A DNA stretch of 64,000 nucleotides from an uncultured Planctomycetota bacterium (lineage in GTDB: Bacteria > Planctomycetota > Planctomycetia > Gemmatales > Gemmataceae). The stretch spans positions 416,001 to 480,000 of the forward strand of contig CAWKHF010000001.1 in the NCBI GenBank assembly GCA_963849325.1, given 5' to 3'. Shown piece after piece: positions 28,101 to 56,168 of the stretch. The notes beneath the pieces are model-generated. The model worked only from the letters and a program-made list of their open reading frames with translations, did no database searches and was not told where the DNA came from. The first letter of the stretch is position 1. The number at the start of each line of letters is the position of its first letter. Both the position numbers and the translations under genes were made by a program.

Positions 28101-28189
28101 GCCGAGAGCTTCCGCGTGCTCTCGGGCTTCAATGCGGCCACGGCCCGAAGACCGTGGAGAACACGGCTCGACGAGTTCGGCCGGATGCA

Positions 28190-40175: not shown

Positions 40176-40450
40176 CGCTCGCGTTGCAAGCGGTGTATTT
40201 CACGCTCGTTAGAGCGTGCTCTGCGAGCAGGCTGAGGAATTGGAGGAACAGAGGAAGCAGAGGAAACAGTTCCTCATTCGTCAACTCCTGCCGGCGACAG
40301 ATGTTCGGCGACGCGAGCGGCTCGCGGGCCAAGCAAACAACGCATCTCCTCAATTGTCAAAGACCAGCGCCACGGAGACCGGGCGAACACGATTGCAGCA
40401 CCTTGGCGTTCGCGGCATCGATGCGAGAAGAACGGCGTGACCGACAGCGA
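40176..40450 (-). promoter_or_regulatory. CRISPR leader
   Basis: Non-coding stretch between csb2 and the first repeat; TTGACA-containing motif at 40350-40376 (minus strand) and GCGAGC direct repeats. Confidence 0.7.
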
Positions 40451-41263
40451 TCATTCGGTTGGGAGGAACAGGCCCAGACCGAAATGAGAGGCGTGGCCCA
40501 GACAAAGCGGCCCCGCCAACTCGCGGTCGAACTCCAGGCGGAACGCCGCCGTCGCTCGATTGGCCCCGTCGTCGCCCGGTTTGCGGCGGCCGCGACGGAA
40601 CTGAAGCGGCCGGAACGAACAGGTGCGGCCTACGTGATCCAAGACAGTATAGGCGGCCGATGCACCGGCCGCCAGGGTGGGTTGACGGCGGAGCCAGCGT
40701 TGGCTTTCTTCGGCAAGGACGCGGGCCGCGAAGTGCGGCCGGCCCGTGAGACCGTGACAGTCGGGCGGGTCTTTCTGACGGCCGCGTTTCTTGGGGCAGC
40801 GCGTGACGACAAACGGCGTGGCCGACTCCCAGACGCGGGCGGGACCAAACAGGCGACAGCGGAAATCCTCCGGCCGGCCCAGCCCCACCAGCAGCACCTG
40901 CAACGGGTCGCCCTCCCCCCAGGGCAGCCGCCGCACGGCTTGGAGGGCCGCCAGCTCGTCGGGGCCGAATCCCTCCGCGGCGTAGACGGTTACGTGATCG
41001 AGGCGGCTGGCGTCGTTCTCGGCCGTGGGCAGATAGTAGGCGTGGTCGTGGGAGTTCAGCGGCCGACCCGTTTCATCCTTTCCGGAAAACACCCGCGAGT
41101 AGAACTGCTGCGGATATCGCTTGGCGGCGTTTCCGTATCTGCGACGGTGCAGAAAGCGCTGAAAGCGATGCATGAGCACATGCCGAAACGCCTCGGCCAC
41201 TGGGAGGGTTTCGGTCACAAGTGGTAGCACCGGGCCGTCGAGCAGGAAGCGGGCGATCGTCAT
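40451..41263 (-). CDS. csb2: Csb2 (type I-G Cas5/Cas6 fusion), C-terminal Cas6-like portion only
   Basis: SGKD...HDHAYYLP, VWESATPF and GPLCLGHASHFGLGLF Gly-rich loop. About 270 aa from ATG 41263 (frame open to 41455); no N-terminal Cas5-like half seen. Confidence 0.85.
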   Translation of the reverse strand: MTIARFLLDGPVLPLVTETLPVAEAFRHVLMHRFQRFLHRRRYGNAAKRYPQQFYSRVFSGKDETGRPLNSHDHAYYLPTAENDASRLDHVTVYAAEGFGPDELAALQAVRRLPWGEGDPLQVLLVGLGRPEDFRCRLFGPARVWESATPFVVTRCPKKRGRQKDPPDCHGLTGRPHFAARVLAEESQRWLRRQPTLAAGASAAYTVLDHVGRTCSFRPLQFRRGRRKPGDDGANRATAAFRLEFDRELAGPLCLGHASHFGLGLFLPTE

Positions 41264-41433
41264 TAAGGCAGTGCCAGGTTTCTCGGTAACCACGACACGA
41301 AATGGGCGGTCATAGGGAACCGCTTCAAGTGTCGCGGAATCCAACGTCGGAACCACAATCGGTGTGATCCGATTGTCCGAGGCCTCTGTGTCAGGCCGCC
41401 GGCGACGCGAACCCCTTCTTGGCCTGCCCATGC

Positions 41434-43766
41434 CTAGCTCCTTGTTCGTTTCCACCCTGTGCTGACATCATAAAGTTGAACGGCGAGGCTCATTGGGACA
41501 TGAACGATCTGTGATTCTTGCGACGCCTGGTCAATAGAGTAACCATATCGCTTGGGAACCTCAACGATCCGTTGCCCTAATTCAGGCTGCAGTTTCCGAA
41601 GCCGTCCCCGGCGCTGTCCAGGATCGGATAGCGCGTTCGCTTCCCGGAACTGCCGCCAAACGTCGGCGTCGGCAATGTCAACTTCGACGAAGTGCGCAAC
41701 CGCATCCTGACGTTCGTCGATGAGTCGAACCGCTTTGTCTTGGTCCTTTGCATCGATTCCTTCCCCACGGAGAGAGGCAAACTCCCACTGCTGAACCGCC
41801 TCCATGACCTTGTGAAAGGTGTCCGACCCGGTTCGGCTGGCGACGAGCCTGAAATATTCACCCACGCTCTCTTGGAGTCTTGGCTCGGGTACGGGCGTCC
41901 CTTGACCGGCAGCTCTTTCCAGAACCTCTCGCGGCACCCATCTCCTTGTTGCCATAGATCAGGTTGCCGGTATCTCCTTCCACTCTGACCAGGAAAACCT
42001 GGCCGCGGCGTCCCGTGCCGTGCCGGTTACACCGTCCGGCGGCCTGAACCACGGCGTCTAGGGGGGCCAGCGCTCGGAAAACCACGTCGAAGGACAGATC
42101 GACACCTGCCTCCACCACCTGAGTGGCGATGAGAAGATGCGGCCTACCGTGGCACTTTACGATCTGTTGTAAGATCTTCTTCCGGTCCAGCGGTCGCAAG
42201 TTTGTGGAAAGGTGAAAGACTGGATTATCGGAAACGCCGGGCAGCACCTTACCAAGGCGCATAGGTCGAGGGCTTCCTGGATGGTGTTCACGATGACAAG
42301 GCAAGACGGCTGCTTCGGGTCCGTTACCACATTGCGAATCCGATCAGCCAAGGCGACGAGGCTCACTGGCTGCCCCGTCTGCACATGGAGGTCGTAACGG
42401 TCGAATGCAACCGCCAGCGTTTCAGCCAAGGTCGGGCGCAGCTCGCTCACATCGGTTGCCTCGAAGATGGCCGGTTGGGTAGCCGTTACCAGCAGTACAT
42501 CGGTTCCCCATTGATCGCTCAGTGCTCGCAGCGCGGTGTTGATAAGCCGCCAGAACTTGGCGGGGATGGCTTGCACCTCGTCAAGGATTAAGATGGAACC
42601 AGCCAGGCGGGCAAATCGCCTCGTGTCGGCGACAGTTCCGTGGAACAGGGCGTTTACGACCTGGACGAACGTAGTGCAGATGATGTCGGCTCGCCATCCT
42701 TCGACCCAACTCCGAGCAAGCGACTGCTCGCCGCTCCGCGCCAGCTCGCCCGGCTCCGCGACGTGGTGGTGAACTGCCAGAGTGCTTTCGTCTGGCTCGT
42801 CATCTCCCCATATGCGGCGCAGCACAGACGCGTTCTGGTCGATGATGCTTGTAAACGGCAGCGCGTAGACGATCGGGCACGGGGGAAGGCCAGCGCCAAT
42901 GCGCGCCTCGCGACGCCGGAGCGCCCACCCCAGGGCCGCGAGGGTCTTCCCCGCCCCAGTGGGAACCGTCAAGCTCCATAGGTGGCCCGAGTCGAGCTGG
43001 TCGGAGGTTTGCCCGATCCACGGCGGCCTGATACACGTGTTCTCGTGCCTGAACGACACGCGGGTCGGCCGCTGGACCGAAGTTGGCGGCGGTTCGGAAC
43101 CGCTCCAAGTGGGCAATCGTGAATCGAAGGGGTGCTTTGAAGAGATCAGGTGCGAACCCTGTCGCGGAATCTCGATCTGCCTCAATCAACAGGCCGAACC
43201 AACGCAGCGCGTCCTGGAACCTCTTCATGGCGGCCAACCCGGATGGCCCTTGCCGAAAAGCGGTAGACGAGCTGCACCCGCAGCTTGGCCCATCGCAAGT
43301 CGAGGTCCGGCTTCTGGACCGGCTCGCCAAGACTTGCGGCAAGCCAGGTCGCCGCGCCTTCAAGATCCAGGGCTTGAAGTTGCTTCGCCCACAGGCCACG
43401 CGCCACATCGTCGGATGGGGGCAGTGATTCCAGCGCGTTCTTCAACCCCGTGTGGTGGTGCGCCACCATCAGATACGCCAAGACCGTTTGGTCTATGGTC
43501 AGGCCATGAGCGGCGACCTTGGGTAACAGGTGGTTAAGCAGCCAGACGGCCCCAAGGTGGGCGTGCTGCTTCAACCGGAGATCGCTGACAGGTTGACCCT
43601 TCAGGTAGTGCTGGAAGTGTTCTGTCCCTTTTGCCACGTCATGGAACAGGCCGGCGATCCGACCCAACCAGCCACAGGCGGTTAGCCGATTCGCCACGTC
43701 TTGAAGGTGGCCGGTCAGGGGCTTGCCTGGGTGCGATTCACAGAGCCGAAAAGCAGGTGCCATCAT
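41434..43766 (-). CDS. cas3: Cas3 HD nuclease-helicase (several frameshifts)
   Basis: SHP..HL, FHDVAK and HH in the HD domain; PTGAGKT, DEVQ, TAT, ATQVVEAGVD and QAAGRCNRHG. Confidence 0.92.
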
Positions 43767-44475
43767 CGCACCTCCAATACGTGCGCATGGTAGCCGTGAT
43801 CGAGCCGCCGGTCGTTTCAAGTAGGTACTCTTCGTACCGCTCCACCTGCCGCGTCGGCAGCATTTCGGCCGGCATGCGAATCCGCTGGTAGACGGCTTCC
43901 TCGTCCCAACGAATGTCCTGTAGATCCGCGGTGCGGATGGGCGATACAAAACGCTGATGCCCGGCCCCGTCGCGGACCTCCTCCGCCTGAACAGTTCGGA
44001 CCACATCCCCGAACCATGCGATCATCCATGCCAGACCGAGGCAAGGGGTGTAATTCGTCATGCCCCGGCGCAGGGTCGTCGCCAACCGCGAACCGAGTTC
44101 GGGATGGCTGAACCAAACCCGATACCGTGGCTCGCGGATGATCTCATACCGCATGATCGTATGCGGGTTCACCGACTTGGGCCGGAAGGTCTGGATGCCA
44201 AGCACGGTCGGCGTTCCCTTGGTGTCGAGAAGGTTGAGCGAAACGTGCCCGGTGCGCAGCGGCGCGAGCATCTGGAGGGCGAATATCGCCTGGGAATCCC
44301 GAAACTGCTCCAGGGAATCATTCTTCGGCAGCCCCAGCACCGCCCCGACGAGACCACAAAGCGCCGTTCGCGGCGGCGCCGGGAAGCTCAGCGCCGTCGT
44401 GATGGCGTACGGCCGCCGGAAGTGGGCCATGTCCGACAGCACATCGAAGACAATGAACTCGCGCGGCATGGTCAT
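43738..44475 (-). CDS. cas5: Cas5 (I-B Cas5h-like)
   Basis: AHFRRPY..TALSFPAPPRTALCGLVGAVLG and YTPCLG. Confidence 0.92.
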   Translation of the reverse strand: MTMPREFIVFDVLSDMAHFRRPYAITTALSFPAPPRTALCGLVGAVLGLPKNDSLEQFRDSQAIFALQMLAPLRTGHVSLNLLDTKGTPTVLGIQTFRPKSVNPHTIMRYEIIREPRYRVWFSHPELGSRLATTLRRGMTNYTPCLGLAWMIAWFGDVVRTVQAEEVRDGAGHQRFVSPIRTADLQDIRWDEEAVYQRIRMPAEMLPTRQVERYEEYLLETTGGSITATMRTYWRCDDGTCFSAL

Positions 44476-45473
44476 TCCAGGTTTAGTGCTTCGGCCGGCA
44501 GGCCCAGGAAGATCCTGTCCGTCGGCTCCGAGGAAAAAGGCAAACGTTTGTCCCAGGCGTAGCGGACTCGTTCGATCCGCTCCTTCTTCCTGTCCAGGGC
44601 CGCCGCGAGTTCACCGAGTTGAAGCGCCACCTCGCGCACTTCGCGGATCTGCTCATCGCGGAGCGTCTGCCTACCTTCCTTCGCCGTTGCCGTGATGGTC
44701 AAGAACCGATCCAGCCGGCCGATGTACGCATTCGGTTCCTTGTATTCGATGACCAGCAGCAACAACGGACGCTGACCGATCTTGGATCGGCTGATGAGGT
44801 TTTTCGTCCCGTACCATATGCCTTTGTACAGTTCCTCGACATCCGCGTCCGTCAGTTTGGTCGTTGTCGCCGCTTGCTGGTTCACGATGCCGTAGAAGGC
44901 GATGAGGGCGTAGGGGAGGATGTACTCCTCGCGGAATGTCCTCTGCTGAGCGCCTTGACCTGACGCGAACGCACCGGTCCCCTTGATGAACCGTGGTTCG
45001 ACGCGGTGCAGGCTGGTACCCATTGCGAACTGAACCGGTCCTGTCAGCGTGACGCTGGAGTCTTTTTCATTTTTTTGGATTTTGGAAACCGGAATCGTGG
45101 CGCCGAAGAGCCGCACGTCGATGCACTCCTTGATGACGCCGGCCTGAATCAGGTCGCGCTTCTGTAAGACATTCGTGGCCTTTTCCCTGGCTTCCTTGGC
45201 GACCTTCTGGAAAAAGTCTTCCGCCCGGTCCTTCCCCTCTTGGATGGTGCCGTCCGGCTTCTCGATCTCCCGACAGAAGATCTCCTGCTTGCCGTAGTCA
45301 TGCAAGTAGTCGCGGATCGTGCGCTTCAGACGCACGTCGGACACTTTGGCCCGGCCGGTTTCCAGGTCCATGCGCGGCCGATTCTCGTCGTTGGGGTCGC
45401 CGTTGGGGTTGGCGTCCGTGATGTCGTAGACGAACAGAATCTCGCTGCGCCGGCTGACCGTCTCAGTCTTCAT
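44472..45473 (-). CDS. cas7: Cas7 (Csh2 family, type I-B)
   Basis: NPNGDP..ENRPR, SDVRLKRTIRDY, DVRLFGAT, TGPVQF and SRSK. Confidence 0.95.
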   Translation of the reverse strand: MKTETVSRRSEILFVYDITDANPNGDPNDENRPRMDLETGRAKVSDVRLKRTIRDYLHDYGKQEIFCREIEKPDGTIQEGKDRAEDFFQKVAKEAREKATNVLQKRDLIQAGVIKECIDVRLFGATIPVSKIQKNEKDSSVTLTGPVQFAMGTSLHRVEPRFIKGTGAFASGQGAQQRTFREEYILPYALIAFYGIVNQQAATTTKLTDADVEELYKGIWYGTKNLISRSKIGQRPLLLLVIEYKEPNAYIGRLDRFLTITATAKEGRQTLRDEQIREVREVALQLGELAAALDRKKERIERVRYAWDKRLPFSSEPTDRIFLGLPAEALNLE

Positions 45474-47383
45474 GGATTCGTTTCCTCACTGGTTGCGGGT
45501 AAGGTTCCTTCGTCTTCCTGTTCCTTGGCGAGCCTAGATCGCAGGGCGTGCCCCAGGGCGAAGTAATAGGAGATGTCGTCCGGGCCCAATGTCCAGCGTT
45601 CCGCCGTCGCGGCCAAAGCGGAGGCAGCGCAGCTCAGCAATCCGCTGACGATGCGCTCCTTGTCGGGGCCATATGCCTTGGCTTTGTCCTTGGCGGCGAT
45701 GAACAATCGCTGAACGTCTGGTTGGTTCAAGCGGAAGCCCTTATACTTCCCCTCGAAGGGCGTCGATCCGCGCACCAGGCTCTGGATCGTCTCGATTCGT
45801 CCGCAGCACGCCCCGACCAGGAAGGCTGCCTGGGCAGCGGGGTCGGTACGAAGCCGGCTGGTTTCCGGCGCTTGCTGGAAGAAGTGGCGGACACGATCCG
45901 CCTGCTCGTTACCTCCGTAGTCCACTATCATAGTCGGCTGGCTCCTTTCGTTGTCTCCTCTTGTAAGTTCCTCAAAAAACAGAAGCGACCGGAAGAGATC
46001 GGCGAGCCTGAACGGCCAAGCCTTGCCCTCCAAGTAGTCTTCTTGAACCCAACGCATCCCGATCTCGACCATGCGGTCGGCGCGATGTGGTCGGATCTCC
46101 AAGGCTGGCGAGTGGCTGAAAGAAAGTCATCGTCGAAGGTGCTACCGCCGCGTGCCGCAGGATAGATGTTTCTGAAGCAGCCGAAGGTAAACCTCCCTTC
46201 GGTGAAGGTCTTTGGGCTCGGCGGTTGAAGCCAGGGATGACGATCAACCCGATCCTGCGCACGGAAGAGTTCCCGGAATCGGGACGGTAGTAAGCCGAAC
46301 ACGGTAGAGCGCTGGCCGGAACGACTGCGGGTCGGGTTGGTAAAAGAGCAGGTCGAGTTGTAGCCGGTTGTTCTCCTCCGCAATGATCTCGAACAGGTCG
46401 TCCTCCGCATCCGTGAGCCGTTTCGATGCCTTGCGATCCACACGAGCGCTGGCTAATCGGTTCAGGGATTGGTAGGTGTCGGTCGCTGCCAGCCGCACCG
46501 AGGCCGGCAACATCAGATACTTGAAGCCGTAGTAGTTGAAAGAGAGATCCCTTTTGATTCGTTCACCGGAGAAATCAACCTTGTCACAGCACTCGCGACA
46601 GGCGGGAAAGTTCCGCCAGGCGTCCAGCGCATCGAAACCTCCTGACACAGAGCCGGGTTTGTCCAGCGTGTAAACCTTGAACTGCTGGATTTGGAGCAGG
46701 CCAGATACCTCGGCATCCCGTCTGCCGCAGATACAGCACTGACCCACGCCCTTGACATCACCCCCTATGCCCTTCTTCTTTGATGCAGCTTCCGTCCCTT
46801 TGCGGACTAGCGCCTGCTGGAAGGCTTTGAAGTCACCAACCCATCGGGCCTCGCCTTCCGAAGGCCGCCAGGCCACCGAGAGGATCGCTGGTTTCGTCAG
46901 ATCGGGGTGGGCTTCCCGCAAGCGGATGAAGATGGCCGATCGAGGATCGCTGCCCGCTGACCCCTGTTTGTCCTTGGGAGACTGCAAACGGTCGCGCATG
47001 ACGGCAAGCGCCTCGCACTCGCATGTCGGTAGGTCTTCGCACTGCTCCAACGCTTCATTGATGCTGCGAGCAAGCCGGCTGAGTTTCTTGCCGATTTCCC
47101 CATCGGCCGTGTTCTCCTTGCCCTTCTTGACAGTCGCCATTCCGGTCGTCGGCGTCGCGTCCCACCCGTTCGGCGGTCCTGGTCGGTAGAGGCAGCGCAA
47201 ACGGCGACCCTCGTCGTATTCGTCCACCTGCACCCCCTCAAAGCCGTCGGATGAGAATACGAGCAGCAGGATTTCCTTGGTGCGAAATTTGGCCGACGGG
47301 TCGGCCGCATATTGGATCAGCTGGTCCTTGACCCCTTCTCGTTCGAGGTAGAACTGGCCGAGTTCGGCGAATTGATGTATCAC
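45470..47383 (-). CDS. cas8b: Cas8b large subunit (Csh1/TM1802-like), frameshifted
   Basis: CCICG...YTLDKPG...NFPACREC Zn motif; C-terminal AFLVG...Q...YYFALG Cas11-like region; first gene of the cas7/cas5/cas3 operon. Confidence 0.85.
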
Positions 47384-47544
47384 CGGGTAGACCCTCTTGA
47401 TAGCCCGCGATTGTCGAGTCAGCCGCCACCCGCTTTACGGTCACCACGTCCTTGGCACTCACCTCCGTCGGTTGGCTGAGTTCTCACTTGGTCCATGCGC
47501 TTCGCGCACGAACGAACGATCTACAGCCGATCCTCGGTGAGGTG

Positions 47545-47550
47545 TATAAT
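47545..47550 (+). promoter_or_regulatory. Candidate -10 box for mini-array 1 / TA operon
   Basis: Perfect TATAAT in GC-rich DNA, flanked by CTACAGCCG direct repeats at 47521 and 47554. Confidence 0.5.
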
Positions 47551-47598
47551 GTCCTACAGCCGGGCCCGCGAGCATACAAGGGCGGTAGCAGAAATCGC

Positions 47599-47710
47599 CT
47601 TCTCCACGGTCTTCGGGCCGTGGCCGCTTTGAAGCAGGCGTCTGCCAGTGGGACAGTTGACCGACCATAGTGAGTTCTCCACGGCCTTCGGGCCGTGGCC
47701 GCATTGACAG
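47599..47710 (+). CRISPR. Mini-array 1: two degenerate repeats and one 38-bp spacer, opposite orientation to the main array
   Basis: Repeats at 47599-47635 and 47674-47710; spacer at 47636-47673. Confidence 0.9.
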
Positions 47711-47779
47711 GTGCTGCCGACCATCGCCCCTTTCTCTCCCGTACCGTCCGCCCGGTCAGGAGATTGCCGGAGACTGTCC

Positions 47780-48007
47780 ATGACCACCGTTTCCCTTTCG
47801 GAAGCTCAAGCCCATCTGCCGGAACTGTTGGAAAAAGTCGCGGCCGGTCAGGAGGTCGTCATCACGCGCGATGATACGCCGCTCGCCTTGATAACGCCCA
47901 TTTGCACGGCCAATCCGCAACCGCGGTTCGGCAGCTGCAAAGGAATGCTCTCCATCGTGAGTGATGATGAGGAACACCTGGAGCACTTCAAGGAGTACAT
48001 GCCTTGA
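47780..48007 (+). CDS. Phd/YefM-family antitoxin
   Basis: MTTVSLSEAQAHLPELLEKVAAGQEVVITR. Confidence 0.9.
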   Translation: MTTVSLSEAQAHLPELLEKVAAGQEVVITRDDTPLALITPICTANPQPRFGSCKGMLSIVSDDEEHLEHFKEYMP

Positions 48008-48390
48008 GGCTCCTGCTCGATACGCACACGTTCCTCTGGTTTACGCTCGGCGACACCCAGTTGAGCCCCACAGCGCTGGCCCTCATCAATGATCCGGGGA
48101 ATGACAAGCTTATCAGCCCAGCCAGCTACTGGGAGATAGCCATCAAGGTCAGCATCAGGAAACTGGCCCTGAACCAGCCCTTCGAGGACTTCCTCGATCG
48201 CGGAATCCGGCAGAACGGCTTCAAAATTTTGCACATCGACCTGCGACACACGGCACGCGTGGTCACGTTGCCGTTCCACCACAAGGATCCGTTCGACCGT
48301 CTGCTCATCGCCCAAGCGTTGACCGAGGGCATCGCCATCGTGGGGGCTGACACGCTCTTCGATCAGTACGGCGCGACGCGGTTGTGGTAG
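48004..48390 (+). CDS. vapC: VapC-family PIN toxin
   Basis: LLLDTHTFLW, S.WEIAIK and HKDPFDRLLIAQA; 4-bp overlap with the antitoxin. Confidence 0.93.
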   Translation: MRLLLDTHTFLWFTLGDTQLSPTALALINDPGNDKLISPASYWEIAIKVSIRKLALNQPFEDFLDRGIRQNGFKILHIDLRHTARVVTLPFHHKDPFDRLLIAQALTEGIAIVGADTLFDQYGATRLW

Positions 48391-48408
48391 GGCAGATGTC
48401 GGGCCGTC

Positions 48409-48693
48409 TTACACCACCACAACCACATCCTTCGCATCGGCCGCCTCCGTCGGCCGGCCGAGCGCCTCGATCGCGTTCACGCACTTCGCGCACAGCGGGA
48501 TGAACAGCACCTGATCCTGCTCCAAGTTGATGAGATCATACAGCCGCGACCGCAAACGTACAAAGTCGGTAGCGGACAAGCGACACAAAAACACCGAATA
48601 TTGCTTGCGGTAGCCGAAGTCCTCGCACACCGTCGCCACCTTGCGCAGACGTTTCGGATCGCTGATGTCGTAGGCGACGAGGTAGCTATCCAA
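48409..48693 (-). CDS. cas2: Cas2
   Basis: [16 protein letters not shown]...QYSVF. Confidence 0.95.
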
Positions 48694-48742
48694 GGATTAC
48701 CCCTCACCCTACCCTCTCCCCAAGGGGCGAGGGACGATCGGC

Positions 48743-50462
48743 TCACCGCACCGTGAAGCCCGTGTACGCCGGCACCGAGCCGCGCACGTACGCGGCCAGC
48801 ATCCGCGCCTGCACCTCCAGCATCCGCGAATAGCTCATCTTGTAGCCGTACACCGGGTGCGTCACCACCGTCGCCTTCCGCTGCTCGTAGGCCTGGAAGA
48901 ACTTCCGCCGGCCCGAGTCCGTCAGCTGACACGCCTCGCGCCACACCAGGAAATCGTCCGGCGTCAGCATCTCGTTGTTGATCAGCGTCAGCACCACCGA
49001 GTCGGCGATCACCGGGCGGAACTCCTCCATCAGGTCCAGCGCCAGCGACGGCTTGCCGTGGCGGTTGGAGTGGAAGAAGCCCTTGTACGGGTCGAATCCC
49101 ACCGTGCAGACCGCCGCGAAGCAGTCCTTCGTCAGCATCGCGTAGGCGAACGACAAGCAGCGCGTTCACCGGGTCGCGCGGCGGGCGGCGGTTGCGCGTC
49201 GTGAACTCGAAGCCGCGGCCCGGCGGCTGCACCTGCAGGAAGCGGCCGAACTCGCCGAAGTACAGCGCCGCTCCCTGCCCCTCCAGCCCCAACACCGTCT
49301 CCAGCGGACGCGGCACTGTCCAACCGCCGGATCAGGTCCGCCAGACCCCGCGCGGCCGGCTCGTCGCTGCCGCGGTCGCCGTCGCCGCGCAGGCTGCGCA
49401 TCAGCAGCGCCCGCTGGTTGGTGAGCTTGGCCCGCACCACCGCCTTCGACAGCGTCAGGCACTCCGCGGCGTCGGCGAAGCGGCGGAACTGCGCCTCGCG
49501 CAGCCCGACGTTCTTGCGCTCGGCCGGCGCGAACGTGCCGATGAACCGGCCGTAGCCCGTCAGGTAGGCCACCGGGATCTCGTTCGTCACCAGCGTCTCC
49601 AGCGCCTGCGTCGAAACCTGCACGTTGCCGAAGACCACCACCTGCCGGATCGCGTGCATCGGCACCCGCGTCACCTCCTGGCCGTCCTTGCGGACGACCA
49701 GATGCTCGCTGCGCTTGCCGACGTGGCTGCCCGGCTCCTGCACGTACAGCACCGCGCCGTCGTCGGACTGCGGGATCACCCGCGTCAGGCCGGGCGGCGG
49801 CGAGGCCGTTTCCTCGGCGGCCGGCGGCAGGCCGATCTGGTAGAGCGTCTCCTCCGGCAGACAGACCGGGGCCAGCGAGCAGCCGAAACAGCGGTGCCGC
49901 AGCTCCGCCGGCAGCGGGTCCGGCGGGGCGTCCAGGGCAGACAGCCGCCGGCATTCGTCGATGGCCGTGCGCGTCTTCGCCCGCAGCTCGTCGCGTGAAG
50001 CGGACCTCGACGCGCTCGCGCGTGCCGGCGTAGAACTGGAAGCCGCGCTGCACCGGCGCGCCGAACGCTTCTTCCATCAGCAGCGCCTGGCCGCACAGCT
50101 GCACGGCGTCGTTGTCCCAGGTCGTCGGCCGGCCGTCGTCGTCGCGCGGGGCGGAGCCGTGCTTGGTCTCCACCGGGTAGGACACGCCGTCCTTCTCCTC
50201 GATCACGTCGAGGACGCCGCTGATGCCGAGCGTCTCCGACGACAGGTGGACGCCGCGACTGCGGTTTGCATCGCCTTCCTTGCGCGTCTTGTTGGCCAGT
50301 TCCGGCTCATCGACGCGGCGGTGATCGAACAGGCCGGCCTCGACGTGTTCGTTGGTGCGGCATCACGGCATCGACGTACTGGAGGTAGTAGAGGCGCGGG
50401 CAGTAGGTGACCTGGTTCAGTGCGCGCAGGGGGATCATCTGGGCGTCGGTCGTTGCGGTCAT
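48743..50462 (-). CDS. cas1: Cas4-Cas1 fusion (several frameshifts)
   Basis: N-terminal YCPRL, PVETK, QLCGQ and C..CSL..VC (Cas4); C-terminal [18 protein letters not shown] and [12 protein letters not shown] (Cas1). Confidence 0.93.
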
Positions 50463-50490
50463 GATTCACCTCAGAGAGTCCGAGTAAGGG

Positions 50491-52407
50491 TTAATCCACC
50501 ATCCGCAGCTTGCAAGGCGCCGGATCCATAGCCACCAGGAGCGGCCGAGAAAGGTGCGTGAAACTGACCACCGCCTGACCCGGCGCCAGTCCCGGGATGC
50601 GGCTCCACAGCGACTCGTCGATGCCGCTGATGGTATGTCGCAGGTTCATTAACACCTGCGGGTCGGTCAGCTTGTGCAGCACAAAGTTGTTGCACAGCGA
50701 CAAAACCTGACGGGGCAAGTGCGCGGGTAACTGTGTCACGAACACCAGCCCGAGCCAGCGCTTCCGGCCGCGCTTGGCGATGCGGGCCACTTGCTGGAAC
50801 AGCGTGTCCATCCGCTCGATGCGATCCGCACTGAGGAACTCGTGCGCTTCCTCAATGATGAGCAGGACGCGAGGAACCGGCGGGTCCTGCCCCGCGGCCT
50901 TCGCCTTCTCGTAGCGGCGGTAGGCATTTTCTTGGGCTTTCTGAACGCCGCGCATCAGATCGGCGATCGCAAAATTCGCCAGTTCCGTCATGCCGGTGTC
51001 CGAAAGGTCCACCACGGAAACCTGACCCGGTGCGATGAGCTGGTCGTAGTTCAGCGGCGGAGCGCCGCGTTTTTGCAAATGGCGATCAAACACTTTCAAG
51101 CGATTCAGCCGCCAGAGCAGGCTCTTGACCTTGCCCCACGAGGACGCACTGCTCAGTTCCTTTGCCTTGATGTGTTTCTCCAACGCCGCGCGGCCGGCGT
51201 CGGTACGGAGCACGGCGTTGTATGGCTCGAAGCTCGTTTTGCTCACCGTCGCCAGACACTTGCCGACCACGTCGAGCAGCAGCGACAGCGTCAGGCGGGG
51301 CCAGCCGCGCTCGAACTCGTCGATGCGGAGCAGCAGCTGTTCCTGCTTGTCCACTTCTTCCTTCGGCTTGTCCCGTTGTGGGAAAATGCCGAGGTCGCGC
51401 ATTATCGCCTTGGTGATTTCGTAGGCCGGAAGAAACCGCTCAGATTGAGCATCGTTCATCCCCAGCATTTCGATAACCGCGTGCGGAGAAAGCGCGGCAA
51501 ACTGGAGCGAGAACTCGCTGCGGTTTGGATGGCGCGGGTTCGTGGACTCACGACCGACAAGGTGGTACAGCCGCATGGAGTCCGCGGGGATGCCGGCTGG
51601 CGACAGGCCACGCTCCTGCAAGGCGTCCAGCATCGTGCGGTGATCGGCCGGTTCGTGCAAGTGCGTGTATTCGCCCTCGACATCCAGCAGAATGACGGTC
51701 ATCCCCACGGCCTGAGCTTGCTGGATCAAGCCCGCCACCGTCGTCGATTTGCCGCCGCCCGTTGTACCGAGGACCGCGACGTGGCGCGGCAGCACGGCCT
51801 TCTTGTCGGACGGTACGTTGACGATCACCTCGCTCGCCCCAACCACGGAACCCAGCCGGATGTCGCCATCGGTGTGCAGGACTGCGGCTACCTCCGATTG
51901 CGTCAGGGCAACGACGGGGCTATTGGGCAGCGGTCGCAGGCGCGGCGGAACCAGCGAGCCGTTCTTGAGTTCCTCGCCCAGAATCGAGACCGTCGCGCGG
52001 CCGTGGTAGGGCGGCAGATAGACGCCGCCGCGCGCCGTCACGGTGACGAGCAAATGCGAGTCGGCCCGTAGCGTGTCCGGTTCAGCAAAGGGACCGGCGG
52101 TCACGATGCCCAGGTACTTGCGCCCGTCGCAGCTCTTGATGCGCACCAGGGATTGCGACGGCGCCTGTTGGGCGTGATCGCGCGGCAGCAGGACCGTCAC
52201 GCTGCCGTCTTCGCTGCCGGGCAGGTCGAACATGGTCGCGCCGATGGCGCCTTCCCGATCCGGGTCGGGAGCCAACTCGCCGCCGGCACGGGTTACGTCG
52301 GCTTGGACCTGCTGGAGCAGATCCTCCGGCGGACGGGCGATGCCCAGGTCTTCCTGGCCGTTGTCGTGTGCCGTCCTAGGCGTTGGTCGCGTTGTGGGTG
52401 CAGGCAT
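50491..52407 (-). CDS. HerA-like FtsK/HerA-superfamily ATPase
   Basis: N-terminal HAS-barrel-like region, GTTGGGKS, DVEGEY, IIEEAHEF and RIAKRGRK..LVFVTQ. Confidence 0.88.
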   Translation of the reverse strand: MPAPTTRPTPRTAHDNGQEDLGIARPPEDLLQQVQADVTRAGGELAPDPDREGAIGATMFDLPGSEDGSVTVLLPRDHAQQAPSQSLVRIKSCDGRKYLGIVTAGPFAEPDTLRADSHLLVTVTARGGVYLPPYHGRATVSILGEELKNGSLVPPRLRPLPNSPVVALTQSEVAAVLHTDGDIRLGSVVGASEVIVNVPSDKKAVLPRHVAVLGTTGGGKSTTVAGLIQQAQAVGMTVILLDVEGEYTHLHEPADHRTMLDALQERGLSPAGIPADSMRLYHLVGRESTNPRHPNRSEFSLQFAALSPHAVIEMLGMNDAQSERFLPAYEITKAIMRDLGIFPQRDKPKEEVDKQEQLLLRIDEFERGWPRLTLSLLLDVVGKCLATVSKTSFEPYNAVLRTDAGRAALEKHIKAKELSSASSWGKVKSLLWRLNRLKVFDRHLQKRGAPPLNYDQLIAPGQVSVVDLSDTGMTELANFAIADLMRGVQKAQENAYRRYEKAKAAGQDPPVPRVLLIIEEAHEFLSADRIERMDTLFQQVARIAKRGRKRWLGLVFVTQLPAHLPRQVLSLCNNFVLHKLTDPQVLMNLRHTISGIDESLWSRIPGLAPGQAVVSFTHLSRPLLVAMDPAPCKLRMVD

Positions 52408-52423
52408 AGCTGTTCTCCTCTCC

Positions 52424-53698
52424 TCAATCGTGACGAGTCGTGCGTTCGCTGAAGTAGCGCCAGGGCGCACCGGCCGCAGCGTAGGCCGTTTCGGTCAGGT
52501 GGTGCAGACTGCCGCCGAACACCGAATCGCAAACGTGATGGGCCAAGTCGATCAGCAGCGGGAAGCCGCGCTCTTCTTGGAACATGCTGTCGGCCAGCAC
52601 GATATGGGCGGCGAAGTGAGCGTGGTCCACATGGGCGTAGAAGAGCTGCGCTGGAGCCAGGATCGAGGCGCGGTACAGGCCAACCACCACTTGCGACGCG
52701 ACACGCTCGATGAAGCGTGGTATCCATTCCGGCGGGGACAGCCGCTCGCCGTCCCAGAATAAGTCCCCGGAGGATTCCATCGTGAATCGGCGTTGTTGGA
52801 ACCAGCCTTCCAGACGCGGAGCCAAGTTGCCGAGGATGGCGTAATGCAGCGGAGGCAGCGCCTGGCCAATGGTCAGCGCCAGCAGTTCACGGGGCTCACT
52901 GGCCACGAAGACGAATTTGCCGTAACCCTCGATCAGTTCGCGCATCATCCCGGTCGCGGCGACCATCAATTCCAGGATGTCGGCGCCAGTCAGCAATTCG
53001 TAAGTGATCGGATTGCCGTGGCCCATCCGCCAAACCGCCCTCGATTGGCGGAGGAGAATGGCCCGTTCGGCGTAATCCATGACAGCCTTCCTCGCCAATT
53101 CGCCGAGTTGGTCGCTCGGCGTTCCGTGGTTGAGGGCGGCTCGTTGGTCGCGGCGTCGGAGCAGCTCTAATACCTCATTAAGGTCCGCGGGGCCGCGTTG
53201 CCGCAGGTCGCGGCGGAAGAGTCGCTGCTGCCATGTGCCTTGATCGCCAGCGTAGGATACCAGCGAAACGCCGACCTGGTAGATCGTCAGAGGCAGCGTA
53301 GCATGTACCTGAACCGTCCCGTCACACGCTTCCACACCGCCGTTAAATAACAGGCCGCGATGAATGAGGGCGAGAATGTCCATGTTCGCGGTGAAGACGC
53401 CGCAGCCCGGTGCCGAAGCTGGGTCGATAAGCTTTGGGAAAACTTCGCTGCGAATGCACCGTTGGTACTCGTCCTCCTGGGCGATGGCCTCACGCACTTC
53501 GCGCTCGATACGCGGATACTCCTGCGCCAGGTCTCCTCCCAGCCGCCATGTGTTCACATCGAGAACCCGTTGCAACTCCTCACCGAAGCTCGCTCGAAAC
53601 TCGGCGGCGGTTGCCGGTTCCGAAGGCAGGCGCGTCGGCGACCGTGCCGCGGCCGACACGGGGGATGCTGCATCGTCTCGGGATGTGGTGGTTGCCAT
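52424..53698 (-). CDS. NurA-like nuclease
   Basis: ACDGT, ER, HGN (in place of the usual second DG) and GFPLLIDLAH (NurA-like GYP..L..AH); immediately upstream of herA. Confidence 0.65.
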   Translation of the reverse strand: MATTTSRDDAASPVSAAARSPTRLPSEPATAAEFRASFGEELQRVLDVNTWRLGGDLAQEYPRIEREVREAIAQEDEYQRCIRSEVFPKLIDPASAPGCGVFTANMDILALIHRGLLFNGGVEACDGTVQVHATLPLTIYQVGVSLVSYAGDQGTWQQRLFRRDLRQRGPADLNEVLELLRRRDQRAALNHGTPSDQLGELARKAVMDYAERAILLRQSRAVWRMGHGNPITYELLTGADILELMVAATGMMRELIEGYGKFVFVASEPRELLALTIGQALPPLHYAILGNLAPRLEGWFQQRRFTMESSGDLFWDGERLSPPEWIPRFIERVASQVVVGLYRASILAPAQLFYAHVDHAHFAAHIVLADSMFQEERGFPLLIDLAHHVCDSVFGGSLHHLTETAYAAAGAPWRYFSERTTRHD

Positions 53699-53834
53699 CG
53701 TTCGTTCTCCCACGCGCTTTGCCGGCACCCTCGCGCCTGACTATACTCTCCTGGATTAAAGTGGTCGCGCCCGTCCCTTGTCCGTGGCCCAGTTCTTTGA
53801 CAATTGAACCGCATCGCCTTGCCACCTCGACGAG

Positions 53835-53946
53835 GTTCTCCACGTTCTTATGAACGTGGCCGCATTGAAGATCCCTCACTACTTCCCGACATGCGCGACA
53901 AAGTTCGACATTCTCCACGGTCTCATGGCTGTGGCCGCATTGAAGT
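53835..53946 (+). CRISPR. Mini-array 2: two diverged repeats and one 38-bp spacer
   Basis: Repeats at 53835-53871 and 53910-53946 keep TTCTCCACG...GTGGCCGCATTGAAG; spacer at 53872-53909. Confidence 0.85.
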
Positions 53947-53984
53947 GTAAGCAATCCCGCAAGCTCGCCGTGGCAAGCCAACGC

Positions 53985-54719
53985 TCAGGAGCGCAGTCGC
54001 TGGAGCAACGGATCTTCCCGGACGGGCGGTAAGAGGAGACGGCTATAGTCCTTAGCCTGCTCCTGCGGCAGACCGAAATCGGCTTGCAACACTTCCGCAA
54101 GTCGGATTCTTCCTTCCACACCCGAAATCGACCCGGCTCGCGCCCATACGTCGGCGGCAGGCGCCAGCAGTTCGTAGGCGACCTGATCGGCTTCCTCTTC
54201 GGCCAGCGTGATGGTCGCGTGAAGCACTTCCCGGCGCGGGCCACGCCGCATCAAATGCAGATGAAAACCGAGGGAAATGCTTTTCAAGAGCGCATGAAGA
54301 CACTCCTCTGGCGTCGGCGGGCGCTCCCCGTCCAGGACTTCCACGATTCGTTTCCCCAAGTAGCGGCACGCCCGCCGCCGAGGATGCCAGTAATGTCGCA
54401 GAAAATGAGCCAACTCGTGTGCCAGTGAGAAACGCTGGTCGTCATCGCTGTCGGTTCCGTCGAGAAAGATCAGTCCATGACCGAAATGGGCCGCCAGGCA
54501 AGCCCGCAACGGACGATCCGCTTCGTCGCAACGACAGGCGATCCCGTTCCGGCACAACCAGTCACGGACACTATCAAGCCGTAAATGCGGCAGCAAGACG
54601 ATGGATACCGGCAGCGCCCGGACTATGGGCCGGCGTAATTCACGAGGGAAGGATTCGTCCAAGCCCGCAGCCGCCCAGAACTCACGGATCAATTCCGCGA
54701 TCCACAGCGGCACTCTCAT
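53985..54719 (-). CDS. ImmA/IrrE-family Zn metallopeptidase
   Basis: QRFSLAHELAH (HExxH) and EEEADQVAYELLAP. Confidence 0.88.
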   Translation of the reverse strand: MRVPLWIAELIREFWAAAGLDESFPRELRRPIVRALPVSIVLLPHLRLDSVRDWLCRNGIACRCDEADRPLRACLAAHFGHGLIFLDGTDSDDDQRFSLAHELAHFLRHYWHPRRRACRYLGKRIVEVLDGERPPTPEECLHALLKSISLGFHLHLMRRGPRREVLHATITLAEEEADQVAYELLAPAADVWARAGSISGVEGRIRLAEVLQADFGLPQEQAKDYSRLLLPPVREDPLLQRLRS

Positions 54720-55099
54720 GACTTCGCTCCTTGCGGCGGAGTGTCTTCCGTCGTATTGTCTCGCGCCGCTAACAGGAATCCTTTCTCGCTGTTTTGGCCG
54801 CCGGCGCCAATCCGAAGCCGCAACAGGCTGTGACCCCGCCTGGCAACCTCGGCCAAGACCTCAGCATCGAGCGAGAAGCGCTGCGCGATCTTTTCGACAT
54901 CTTGCCAGAACAGAGGGGCCTGCGCTCGGGGCATCCGGCACAGGCGCAGATGGGTGAGGATTCCCTCGGAACAACCGAGCCGGATGGCCAATCCGGCATC
55001 CTCAAGCTGTTCGCTTCGGGCATACTCCGCCAGCGCGCTGGCGAAAAAATCGGGAGCATCGGCGACACGCAGGGCCAGGTGTTCCAGGTACGGATTCAT
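54716..55099 (-). CDS. Small hypothetical protein, possible HTH repressor or anti-sigma
   Basis: LAIRLGCSEGILTHLRLC HTH-like segment and C-terminal LLAARD; 4-bp overlaps with both neighbours. Confidence 0.55.
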   Translation of the reverse strand: MNPYLEHLALRVADAPDFFASALAEYARSEQLEDAGLAIRLGCSEGILTHLRLCRMPRAQAPLFWQDVEKIAQRFSLDAEVLAEVARRGHSLLRLRIGAGGQNSEKGFLLAARDNTTEDTPPQGAKS

Positions 55100-55731
55100 G
55101 CTTTTCTCCCGGCTCGCTCCAGCATCTTCTTTAACCGATCCTTGTTTCGCTTCACCTGCCGGAATTGCTCTTTCGCAGGCAGGTGCAACAAACCGTAGAG
55201 TTCGGCGAAGATTTTGGTCCGGCGTTCCTTCCGCAAAATCAAATCCAGCGCGCGGGAGTCGGTTTCGGACAAACCTTGGCAGACGGAATTTGAGATGGAG
55301 TTCATCGCGCTCTCGTCTTCCTCAGCCACTCGCATCGGGAGTGACGGATCGTCATGGCGTCCCAGATACTTCCCGGCCTCCTGCGAAAGTTCGACACTTT
55401 TCCACGAAACCCGGCCTTTGTTGTGTCTCCGTTCTTTATCGAGAAGGTTGCGCAAGTCTCCGCGGGCTGACATGCGCAGGTACACTTCCAGGGTCTGCCG
55501 TTCCGGAGAGTACGACCGCGGATTACGAATCAAAGCCAGCAGGGCATCCTCCGCAGCCTCGATGCGGACATCCGGAGGCACGCTCGCGTCGGTTTTGGCC
55601 AACCAGGCGACGAGCGGTTCCAGGTAGGCGTCAGCCAGATCATTCGGGGCAGTTGGATCATCAGCCAGGAGGCGCTGATGAATTTCAAGCGCGTTCGGTT
55701 GCCTGGGTGTTAAGGCGGTAGGACGGGCCAT
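55096..55731 (-). CDS. Sigma-70/ECF-like factor
   Basis: AAEDALL...Y..ER.TLEVYL...DLRN region 2-like; LSETDSRALDL...VKRNKDRLKK region 4-like. Confidence 0.65.
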   Translation of the reverse strand: MARPTALTPRQPNALEIHQRLLADDPTAPNDLADAYLEPLVAWLAKTDASVPPDVRIEAAEDALLALIRNPRSYSPERQTLEVYLRMSARGDLRNLLDKERRHNKGRVSWKSVELSQEAGKYLGRHDDPSLPMRVAEEDESAMNSISNSVCQGLSETDSRALDLILRKERRTKIFAELYGLLHLPAKEQFRQVKRNKDRLKKMLERAGRKA

Positions 55732-55939
55732 GTTCTACAGTCCTGCGGATCGGTGTCGGGGCAGTGCTCAAGCAGCTTGGTCACCTGCCGGAACTTGGGC
55801 AGTATAAATCAAGTCACAGCTTAACGCGCAGGACCGGCGTATCAAGCACAAGTGGCTGAATTATCCCTACGTTGGCGCGACCTTATCGACCGAGCAAACC
55901 TATCACCAATCGCTGGACAATCGGCATCCGTGACCGCAC

Positions 55940-56168
55940 CTTGGGCTCCAGGCCGGAAAGGCGGGGCGATGGAGCGGGGCTTCTCCGGGATGGTGAGCGA
56001 CACCAGGTCCAGTTGGCCCAGCCGGTCCAACTTGAGGAAGGAGCGAATCAACGGAAGCTTCAAATCATCCAGCTCGGCGTGATGGTTGATCCGGTCGTCG
56101 AACGGCACCGTGGCGGTCAGGGCCATCAGCTCGCGCGGCTCGCCGTTCCGCGCGTCGAGACTGTCCAC
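55940..56168 (-). pseudogene. Collapsed fragments of an ATP-binding/transcriptional regulator (AlbA/RecG-C-like) gene
   Basis: VPFDDRINHHAELDDL..LIRSFL fused to LTIPEKPRS. Confidence 0.45.

Follow-up and report, generated by a model that had tools for sequence, protein, structure and literature searches.

What are two solitary repeat-spacer-repeat units doing at the heads of two cas operons, and do the RNAs that they may encode control those operons today? The window (the whole stretch of 64,000 nucleotides analysed here) carries one such mini-array next to its interference genes and another next to its adaptation genes, and an earlier note had proposed that the two are of the CreA/CreR kind and exert paired RNA-guided control. 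Regulatory mini-arrays as such are known; in those parts of the literature on them that we draw on (Shmakov 2023, Liu 2023), their origin is undocumented and examples at adaptation modules are not described.

A hybrid CRISPR-Cas locus and its two mini-arrays

The main CRISPR array of the locus (19192-40175, minus strand) comprises 260 repeats and is split by a 1996-bp IS110-type insert at 28163-30158. Adjoining it is the gene for a stand-alone Cas6-like protein (40451-41455, minus strand) that corresponds to the C-terminal half of the type I-G protein Cas5-6/Csb2 (NCBIfam TIGR02165, 3.6e-19; PADLOC Cas56g, 1.1e-55). The effector genes are of type I-B, with NCBIfam models for Csh2 (9.5e-86), Cas5b (5.7e-28), Cas8b/Csh1 plus TM1802, and Cas3'' plus Cas3', and with PADLOC support for the Cas3b C-terminus. 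Their operon starts (45470-47383, minus strand) with cas8b (46244-47383) and a C-terminal/small-subunit-like ORF (45470-46102), a split of cas8b that is common to all six relatives (6/6). A further operon (48409-53698, minus strand) encodes a NurA-like protein (52424-53698; the label is a protein-atlas lead at 0.97), HerA (50491-52470), a Cas4/Cas1 fusion (about 48690-50206) and Cas2 (48409-48693). Cas6 and Cas4/1 belong to type I-G, in contrast to the I-B effector, a composition that the earlier note had missed, as it had the gene trio upstream of mini-array 2 (IrrE/CapP-like, unknown and sigma-like). The cas3' gene is split over three frames, as is the Cas4/Cas1 fusion; these breaks may reflect either a decaying system or assembly indel errors.

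Direct reading confirms the layout that the earlier note had described, namely two single-spacer units on the plus strand, opposite to the main array (minus strand), each with a 38-nt spacer. Mini-array 1 (47599-47710) consists of repeat R1a (47599-47635), spacer 1 (47636-47673) and repeat R1b (47674-47710), mini-array 2 (53835-53946) of repeat R2a (53835-53871), spacer 2 (53872-53909) and repeat R2b (53910-53946), and all four repeats stand in crRNA orientation (GTTCTCC...ATTGAAGC) on the plus strand. R1a lies 216 bp from the cas8b start (47383) and R2a 137 bp from the nurA-like ATG (53698), in good agreement with the distances of about 215 and 135 bp claimed before. These extra repeat copies are not a product of chance: when the main-array repeat is searched by BLAST against the whole 8.16-Mb genome, matches longer than 21 nt outside the main array occur only at the two mini-arrays.

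Counted against the 37-nt repeat consensus, R1a has 2 mismatches (positions 1 and 30), R1b has 4 (three clustered at its 3' end), R2a has 6, among them the compensatory stem changes G11T with C20A plus G19A, and R2b has 6, of which three fall in the loop, one gives a G-U pair in the stem and two affect the end positions. All eight stem pairs are nonetheless retained in each of the four repeats, which fold into one common hairpin (-14.5, -17.2, -12.9 and -12.1 kcal/mol for R1a, R1b, R2a and R2b, respectively). Positions 26-34 are intact in three of the four, the exception being R1a, the source of the 5' handle TTTGAAGC, whose first handle base carries the change A30T. For stem and cleavage region to be preserved in all four repeats, the joint probability under random substitution is 4.8e-4. 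Note, though, that R2b has only 3 mismatches to the repeat variant of another array (L134) compared with 6 to its own consensus, so that some of the compensatory stem changes may have arisen elsewhere and the argument from hairpin preservation is weakened.

With regard to transcription, a TATAAT -10-like hexamer was spotted by eye on the plus strand 49 nt upstream of mini-array 1 (47545-47550), where a two-hexamer scan found no full promoter; upstream of mini-array 2 there is a promoter-like TTGCCG-17-TATACT (53719-53747, plus strand; 1 found, 0.0 expected in shuffles). A comparison of the sequences that precede mini-array 1, mini-array 2, the main array and the mini-array of the relative G138 showed no leader homology, and neither mini-array spacer duplicates any main-array spacer. 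Rfam returned no relevant match over 47300-54300 at E up to 1. Contigs from two soil DNA runs contain related cas1/cas2 pieces and arrays and offer nothing decisive on mini-arrays.

The slot of mini-array 1 and the source of spacer 2

Mini-array 1 occupies a slot between cas2 and the effector operon, on the opposite strand, that can be followed through related loci. The slot is filled in G138/L136 and G083/L222 and empty in L019; in G229 it holds, judged by eye, only a decayed repeat-like remnant, along with AF2212-like and PIN genes, and in L076 an exact-pattern search of the slot gave nothing. In G138/L136, a syntenic type I-G relative, the mini-array has the same orientation as mini-array 1, and its target, flanked by TTC, sits in the cas3g promoter region (seed 10/10, 26/36). 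Spacer 1 resembles the spacer of this regulator, with a score of 29 against 16.7+-3.5 in shuffles (P=0.004). As far as these comparisons go, mini-array 1 is the positional counterpart of the regulator in G138. In the window the slot also contains a toxin-antitoxin pair that the earlier note had overlooked (47780-48390, plus strand), phd (47780-48007; Pfam PhdYeFM, 1.2e-8) and vapC/PIN (48004-48390; PIN, 1.3e-13), which follows mini-array 1 directly and in the same orientation after a gap of 69 nt. A homologous module, mini-array-DUF433-phd-vapC, is found in G053, its VapC being 77% identical to that of the window.

What does a target look like in this repeat family? Four loci with the same repeat family provide examples: L136/L255 (TTC, seed 10/10, 26/36, offset -123), L087 (TTC, 15 of the first 17, offset -146), L221 (TTC, 17 of the first 18, offset -146) and L222 (TTA, seed 10/10, offset -147). 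The targets lie on the opposite strand, about 120-150 nt upstream, and positions 6 and 12 are mismatched; reversed-spacer controls yielded 8 sites, none of them with TTC. TTC as the putative PAM is based on few cases, namely one main-array self-target, three regulator targets and two sites upstream of nurA (see below); L222 has TTA, and seven protospacers on the phage-like contig L114 have flanks that disagree with TTC (listed further down).

Against this background, neither mini-array of the window has a target at the conserved offset of about -146. Spacer 1 has no target with PAM and seed near the locus or genome-wide (best TTC-flanked site 11/12, on C5, the number being at chance level), and the 215-bp region upstream of cas8b contains no TTC-flanked site for it, the best site there reaching 9/12 with CGG as its flank. 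Spacer 2 likewise has no target with PAM and intact seed near the locus or genome-wide (best TTC-flanked site 10/12, again at a chance-level number), and no spacer seed match was found between R1b and phd (47700-47800) or upstream of mini-array 1. That no convincing PAM-flanked target could be found by eye, as the earlier note remarked, thus also holds for a PAM-plus-seed scan of the locus and the whole genome. A 12/13 match of spacer 1 inside the sigma-like gene (55626-55638, flank GGT) was dropped as not significant alone. Looking further afield, none of the type I-B relatives retrieved by Cas7 (L017-L022) has the window's repeat, L019 and L021 are free of degenerate versions of their respective repeats over some 10 kb, and a metagenome search with Cas8b produced no relatives.

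Mini-array 2 is absent from all three syntenic relatives (G138, G229 and G104/L019), and its conservation in related loci is accordingly not supported. The relatives do, however, point to where spacer 2 came from. The order sig-unk-irrE-nurA-herA-cas4/1-cas2 is identical in G138 and G229, and directly upstream of nurA both carry an element similar to spacer 2, consisting of TTC followed by 37 nt in G138 (30 gapped identities) and of TTC followed by 38 nt in G229 (27/38 ungapped). Both boundaries of spacer 2 coincide with those of the TTC-flanked elements, and the two genomes that bear the element are without mini-array 2. Judging from these alignments, spacer 2 is not foreign and to all appearances duplicates the conserved nurA-upstream element.

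The window has its own ortholog of this element (53708-53745, plus strand), preceded by TTC at 53705-53707, and the site as a whole (53705-53745) is a candidate, if poorly matched, target of spacer 2: it has diverged to 17/38 ungapped and 21 gapped identities and is mismatched at seed positions 5 and 7. It overlaps the complement of the nurA Shine-Dalgarno sequence, the plus-strand promoter-like element and a minus-strand TATAGT, and carries sigma-70-like -10 boxes. A paralogous copy (55360-55395, plus strand; 30 gapped identities) is located inside the sigma-like ORF (55096-55731, minus strand) and is flanked by GCG, not TTC; spacer 2 thus also resembles a site in sigma-like genes, and such genes are widespread in the family (77/252 genomes). 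The sigma-like protein has no homology to the sigma factors beside the mini-arrays of L222 and L114. A third genomic copy (C1:106524) was rejected as a coding coincidence in a gene that, by eye, is putatively SecA-like.

Orphaned regulators as the probable reading, and competing explanations

We favour, with moderate confidence, the reading that both units are genuine CRISPR-derived mini-arrays of crRNA-like regulators (CreR/CreA-type), autoregulators by descent that are now orphaned or much weakened. Each would be transcribed from its own plus-strand promoter, its transcript cut at the preserved hairpins by the Cas6-like protein, and the product loaded into I-B Cascade as a one-guide RNA. Mini-array 1 would descend as the counterpart of the I-G relative's regulator, which targets the effector-operon promoter region, and would here also head the phd-vapC cargo. 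Mini-array 2 would have arisen in the window's own lineage, its spacer copied from the TTC-flanked promoter/5'-UTR element of the adjoining operon, most likely through capture by the adaptation machinery itself; an in-place model, where repeats were inserted around the native element, ranks lower because it requires two precise insertions. The effector module beside mini-array 1 would have been exchanged from I-G to I-B, and the nurA-upstream target would have diverged, gaining its sigma-70-like -10 boxes. With seed complementarity to local targets lost in both cases, orphaned or much weakened regulators would be the most likely state today, and their RNAs are most likely still made and processed.

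Present-day regulation by either mini-array must, as far as sequence can speak to it, be regarded as unproven, because there is no intact target with PAM and seed, the effector has been swapped from I-G to I-B and the site upstream of nurA has diverged (17/38). The assignment of the earlier note to the CreA/CreR kind, with CRISPR-derived units heading the interference and the adaptation operon, is supported by descent, that is, by the slot shared with G138 and by the source of spacer 2. Its claim of paired control is not supported as a present-day function, since neither spacer has a target with PAM and intact seed at the locus or genome-wide. Should the RNAs prove inactive, the two units would be unremarkable, decaying representatives of a class already known. 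For spacer 2 the source can be pinpointed: it is the upstream element of the neighbouring operon, with PAM and both boundaries present in relatives without the mini-array, so that self-capture as the origin of such regulators can be put to a direct test. What module shuffling does to a regulator is likewise visible at this locus, the same slot being target-matched in the I-G relative and unmatched beside the swapped-in I-B effector.

A more far-reaching version of events can be put forward only tentatively. The adaptation machinery might have taken the TTC-flanked promoter/5'-UTR element at the head of its operon and placed a copy in an adjacent solitary repeat, bringing the acquisition of spacers and the processing of DNA ends under RNA-guided feedback, after which the native promoter would have been rewired under self-targeting pressure. 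Together with mini-array 1, this would amount to a circuit of two guides, with separate control of interference and of adaptation, in a hybrid I-B/I-G system.

Imagine instead that paired autorepression were active today, so that the RNAs guide I-B Cascade to the promoter regions of cas8b and nurA, by virtue of a higher mismatch tolerance than in known type I systems or through sites that we failed to recognise. Both mini-arrays do head their operons divergently and have promoter-like elements, their hairpins and handles are intact, TTC has been kept at 53705-53707 along with the residual identity of 17/38, and the geometry of that site, over promoter elements, fits the description of CreR targets as adjoining promoters in the part of Liu 2023 that we draw on. 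However, the seed is 10/10 in all four matched examples from the same repeat family, whereas spacer 2 is mismatched at seed positions 5 and 7 of its TTC-flanked site and spacer 1 lacks a TTC-flanked site in the 215 bp upstream of cas8b altogether. We therefore consider this scenario rather unlikely.

Two further scenarios strike us as improbable. One is an addiction system akin to CreTA, where Cascade and the RNA of mini-array 1 control phd-vapC or a neighbouring gene and loss of Cascade releases the toxin. The position of mini-array 1, which precedes phd by 69 nt in the same orientation, would suit this model, and toxin-antitoxin genes recur beside mini-arrays, in G053 (DUF433-phd-vapC) and in the same slot of G229 (AF2212-like plus PIN); a small ORF follows the mini-array in G083 and L087, and toxin-antitoxin genes are enriched between mini-arrays and cas genes in the cases covered by the relevant part of Shmakov 2023 (PMC10120712). 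Yet neither the stretch from R1b to phd nor the region upstream of mini-array 1 contains a seed-matched site, the Phd and VapC proteins already form a complete pair that includes an antitoxin, and the matched target in G053 lies beside a divergent 70-aa gene rather than at the toxin. The other scenario, to which we assign a similarly low probability, is that the units are plain leftovers of array rearrangement (inversion, repeat recombination) that were never regulatory and are now decaying. It would account for the missing targets and for the lack of conservation of mini-array 2, and fits both with cas genes in broken frames and with a locus that is a rearrangement hotspot (effector swap, toxin-antitoxin insertions, IS110 in the array). 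Mere leftovers, however, would hardly be expected to have spacers not copied from the main array, one of which reproduces the upstream element of the neighbouring operon with TTC and exact boundaries, nor do the stem-preserving substitutions and a slot and orientation shared with the target-matched regulator of G138 sit well with that idea.

Least probable is that the units are hard-wired single-spacer guides aimed at one specific phage or competing mobile element, as in the competition guides that the earlier note had entertained: a phage-like contig from another metagenome (L114) does carry two perfect repeats of the family and one spacer and is matched by 7 spacers of arrays in that metagenome (protospacer flanks AGA, ATC, TTT, AGA, ATC, CTA and CCG), and spacer 2 does resemble a site in the sigma-like genes that are widespread in the family, but the window's mini-arrays sit in a chromosomal cas locus and not on a mobile element, the best matches of self-derived spacer 2 are chromosomal and at the homologous position in syntenic relatives, and the viral collection contains no exact match to any of four 20-mers, one from each half of the two spacers, a search that mismatched protospacers would escape.

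Comparison with known systems

CreTA, from the type I-B system of Haloarcula, combines the antitoxin RNA CreA with the toxin RNA CreT and is thought to make cells dependent on Cascade. The window resembles it in associating a (predicted) crRNA-like RNA from an I-B locus with a toxin, but what adjoins mini-array 1 is a type II pair of proteins, Phd-VapC, instead of a small RNA toxin, and no target was found in the window's phd-vapC promoter.

For the remaining systems we rely on portions of the sources named. Viral mini-arrays, solitary repeat units and RNA anti-CRISPRs (Camara-Wilpert 2023, PMC10651486), and crRNA-like RNAs of phages (preprint 10.1101/2024.10.29.618823), have in common with the present case that one or two copies of the host repeat form a unit away from any array, L114 being such an example; they differ in that the window's units are chromosomal, lie inside the cas locus and, for spacer 2, are self-derived.

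Closer are the class 1 regulatory mini-arrays of Shmakov et al. 2023 (PMC10120712), in the relevant part of which type I-G is named once. Canonical-PAM targets are reported there for all manually examined cases, whereas in our set such targets are found in relatives (L136/L255, L087, L221) and not in the window. Shared features are two-repeat units in intergenic positions of cas loci with an end-degraded downstream repeat (R1b in the window), toxin-antitoxin genes alongside, and a slot that acts as a gene-shuffling hotspot, some loci having the mini-array without cargo and some neither.

CreR (Cas-regulating RNA) mini-CRISPRs are described for types I-B, I-E and V-A, with targets that adjoin promoters, in the part of Liu et al. 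2023 (10.1101/2023.03.10.532045) on which we draw. Unlike these, the window's system is a hybrid, an I-B effector with I-G-type Cas6 and Cas4/1; its genome has no remaining seed-matched target; and mini-array 2 heads an adaptation plus NurA-HerA operon rather than an effector operon, with its diverged candidate site 164 nt upstream on the same instead of the opposite strand. Like CreR, on the other hand, the window's mini-arrays are repeat-spacer-repeat units at the head of cas operons with a (putative) promoter of their own and a crRNA-like product with preserved handle, and in relatives of the same repeat family the spacers partly match PAM-flanked sites beside promoters.

Mini-arrays in a mosaic I-B/I-G locus

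Reading the minus strand from high to low coordinates, we find a sigma-like gene (55731-55096; Sigma70_r2 alone, E 0.004), an unknown gene of 127 aa, an IrrE/CapP-like peptidase (54719-53985), a NurA-like gene (ATG at 53698; the NurA label comes from the protein atlas and is a lead only), HerA, a Cas4/Cas1 fusion of the type I-G kind, Cas2 and then the effector genes. Mini-array 2 lies on the opposite strand between the peptidase and the NurA-like gene, and vapC, phd and mini-array 1, in this order and likewise on the plus strand, separate Cas2 from cas8b. Beyond mini-array 1 the minus strand continues with cas8b, a small-subunit-like ORF, cas7b, cas5b, cas3'' and cas3', and with a stand-alone Cas6-like protein, between cas3' and the main array, that matches the C-terminal half of a type I-G Cas5-6 protein. 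The region 40451-50206 is a mosaic of modules: a I-B effector stands beside Cas6 (that Cas5-6g half), Cas4/Cas1 and a repeat, all three of the I-G kind. Relatives with Cas2 84-91% identical (L076, L136, L255) carry full I-G effectors.

Both cas3' (41434-43185) and cas4/1 (48477-50206) are spread over three reading frames. Related contigs have one base fewer near 49155 and near 49994 in the cas4/1 region, and the three cas3' pieces occupy a single frame in the relative L019, so that the breaks are due either to genuine decay or to indels introduced by long-read assembly. The split in cas8b is common to 6/6 relatives and is therefore not a break.

Read from the sequence, mini-array 1 consists of R1a (47599-47635), the 38-nt spacer 1 (47636-47673) and R1b (47674-47710), and mini-array 2 of R2a (53835-53871), the 38-nt spacer 2 (53872-53909) and R2b (53910-53946). 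Both are in crRNA orientation on the plus strand (GTTCTCC...ATTGAAGC), at the same positions where the earlier note had placed two single-spacer, plus-strand mini-arrays with 38-bp spacers, opposite to the main array. The window covers C1:416001-480000 of a genome of 8.16 Mb, 14 contigs and 65% G+C. In a BLAST search of this whole genome, repeat matches longer than 21 nt occurred in the main array and at the two mini-array sites only; the observation is confirmed as real, beyond chance. A promoter-like TTGCCG-17-TATACT (53719-53747, plus strand; scan tool) precedes mini-array 2. By eye, TATAAT (47545-47550) precedes mini-array 1; the scan tool gave no promoter around it.

The main array (19192-40175, minus strand) holds 260 repeats, 201 of them exact consensus, with spacers of 31-43 nt, and is divided by a 1996-bp insert (28163-30158) with an IS110-family transposase (DEDD_Tnp_IS110, 1.6e-18). 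A block at 35551-38900 contains 36-nt repeat variants with one loop base fewer (22 + 16 copies), which suggests two segments of differing history. One main-array spacer (33523-33557) self-matches C6:235120-235154 on another contig at 34/35 positions with a TTC flank; other main-array spacers have weaker matches within the same stretch (200-236 kb), possibly a prophage.

Target-matched regulators in the repeat family

A repeat-pattern search of metagenome contigs returned at least 123 stretches, and the 80 loci examined comprise 32 arrays and 48 loci with 1-3 repeat copies. Type I-G loci are the native setting of this repeat family (L136 and L076, with Cas3g, Cas8g2, Csb1 and Csb2), which occurs in 15/252 genomes of the window's taxonomic family. 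It includes target-matched regulators: four mini-arrays have clear regulator-type targets, upstream on the opposite strand. The L136 mini-array, identical in genome G138, faces cas3g and has a TTC-flanked target at offset -123 (seed 10/10, 26/36 overall). Those of L087 and L221 (genome G053) face a gene for a 70-aa unknown protein, with TTC-flanked targets at -146 that match at 15/17 (mismatches at 6 and 12) and 17/18 (mismatch at 12) first positions, respectively. The fourth, L222 (genome G083), faces an ECF-type sigma factor (Sigma70_r2 + r4) and has a TTA-flanked target at -147 (seed 10/10). A reversed-spacer control gave 8 seed sites, 0/8 with TTC.

Note that TTC as PAM rests on few cases and is contradicted by one set, the protospacers of the phage-like contig L114, whose flanks are AGA, ATC, TTT, AGA, ATC, CTA and CCG (n=7). 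This contig is matched by 7 spacers from arrays in its own metagenome; it carries two perfect repeats and one spacer itself (L114:10001-10103, minus strand), along with genes for thyX, dCTP deaminase, a DNA methylase, an excisionase-like protein and a sigma factor.

The family also takes other forms. In the L222 mini-array, about 4.5 tandem 14-nt units stand where the first repeat should have its 5' half (L222:5090-5160, minus strand). Solitary repeats on soil contigs (L093:3144-3174, L089:2099-2129, L139:10001-10030 on the minus strand, and L195, G107:C8:6780-6809), one of them from the window's own genus, directly precede purine-rich ribosome-binding sites and the starts of clpB, clpX and citrate synthase, and look like 5' UTR hairpins. 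At L088, L127, L102 and L104 the 'spacer' is ~80-90% identical to what comes after the next repeat, ribosome-binding site and start codon included, and looks like a tandem duplication of repeat and gene start.

Descent of the two mini-arrays

We consider it somewhat probable that the mini-arrays descend from regulators and have since been orphaned or weakened. Both retain their processing signals. Out of 37 positions, R1a is mismatched at 1 and 30, R1b at 12, 35, 36 and 37, R2a at 11, 16, 17, 19, 20 and 37, and R2b at 1, 15, 16, 17, 21 and 37, yet 8/8 stem pairs are kept in each, in R2a with compensation (C20A pairs with G11T, and G19A turns a wobble into a Watson-Crick pair). Such retention in 4/4 repeats occurred in 4.8e-4 of 200,000 random trials with equal substitution numbers, and each repeat folded singly gives an identical hairpin. 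A repeat variant in the L134 array differs from R2b at 3 positions, fewer than the main-array consensus does, so some of this pattern may stem from inheritance and not from selection at the site. The mini-array RNAs would be produced, processed by the Cas6-like protein and taken up by the I-B Cascade.

Would they still find a target? TTC-flanked seed matches are absent from the intergenic regions of 40000-56000; across the genome, the best TTC-flanked seed sites match spacer 1 at 11/12 and spacer 2 at 10/12 positions, in unrelated places and not convincingly; neither spacer matches the window at the relatives' target offset; and exact 20-mers from the two spacers are absent from the viral collection. 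The earlier note had likewise seen no convincing PAM-flanked target by eye. With seed pairing lost, the two circuits would now be weak or broken. Active paired autorepression, with the hairpins in its favour and these searches against it, seems improbable.

Keeping in mind that the syntenic comparison rests on few relatives, themselves related, the order from the sigma-like gene to cas2 recurs in G138:C973 and G229:C5 (nurA 85% and 76% identical, cas2 84-85%), with type I-G-like effector genes coming next. In G138 the target-matched mini-array sits between cas2 and the effector operon, on the other strand from the cas genes, which is also the slot and orientation of mini-array 1. Spacer 1 and the G138 spacer align with a score of 29 (2000 shuffles, 16.7+-3.5; P=0.004), modest evidence for a common descent. 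Mini-array 1 adjoins a I-B effector module in place of I-G, so that the cas3g promoter region, its ancestral target, is missing here.

In G229 the same slot has an AF2212-like antitoxin, a PIN toxin and, by eye, one decayed repeat-like sequence only. In G053 (L221), DUF433, phd and vapC follow a mini-array in one common orientation, and phd and vapC share 56% and 77% identity, respectively, with those of the window. The slot is therefore a hotspot of shuffling in which mini-arrays and toxin-antitoxin cargo are gained and lost, as Shmakov 2023 (PMC10120712) also describes. That mini-array 1 guards such cargo fits its vapC-phd neighbourhood; we regard it as quite unlikely. Plain relics, to which the intact stems are opposed, are equally unlikely. 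As to conservation in related loci, to which the earlier note tied its proposal, mini-array 1 has a counterpart in G138 in the same orientation, by eye only a decayed repeat-like sequence in G229 and an empty slot in L019; mini-array 2 is absent from the irrE-nurA junction in 3/3 relatives (G138, gap ~49 bp; G229, ~89 bp; L019).

Spacer 2 is a copy of the neighbouring operon's TTC-flanked upstream element, self rather than foreign. Upstream of nurA, after the flank ...gcacgTTC, G138 has a 37-nt site with 30 gapped identities to it and G229 a 38-nt site with 27/38 ungapped; the homology begins directly after TTC and stops at the spacer's last base. This ~36-nt element (TCCC..TACTTCCCGG..AAAGTTCGAC) has two copies per locus, directly upstream of nurA and in the sigma-like ORF (L255:13469-13505 and ~14901-14937; L256:16752-16789 and ~18208-18244, the G138 and G229 loci). 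The ORF copy occurs in all three genomes, in the window at 55360-55395 (GCG flank, 30 gapped identities), where its score was matched by 2/16,344 non-self chunks genome-wide. The element is also found near sigma-like homologs in several other genera. It may serve this module as a promoter or operator. The window's nurA-upstream ortholog keeps TTC (53705-53707) and its first bases, TCCCACG, which are complementary to the nurA Shine-Dalgarno, and has diverged beyond (17/38 ungapped, seed mismatches at 5 and 7), whereas the nurA-proximal flank is 35/46 identical to G138. The diverged site overlaps the plus-strand promoter-like element and a minus-strand TATAGT.

Spacer 2 was presumably captured by the adaptation machinery; insertion of repeats around a native element in place ranks lower, because it requires two precise insertions. 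Immune or competition guides are very unlikely given the self origin of spacer 2.

Relation to known regulatory mini-arrays

By architecture and descent, both units belong to a known class, CRISPR-derived regulatory mini-arrays. In Shmakov 2023 and Liu 2023 (preprint, 10.1101/2023.03.10.532045) that class is marked functionally by a PAM-flanked, seed-matched target; none was found in this genome, so the assignment does not rest on shown function. Neither text, as considered here, describes a mini-array that specifically serves an adaptation operon, a statement about these two sources rather than the wider literature; the wording of Shmakov 2023 includes 'I-G' once and 'two mini-arrays' never. 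Against this background three features are unusual: a second mini-array heading the adaptation and NurA-HerA operon, a mini-array spacer (spacer 2) with a nameable source, and the hybrid I-B/I-G setting.
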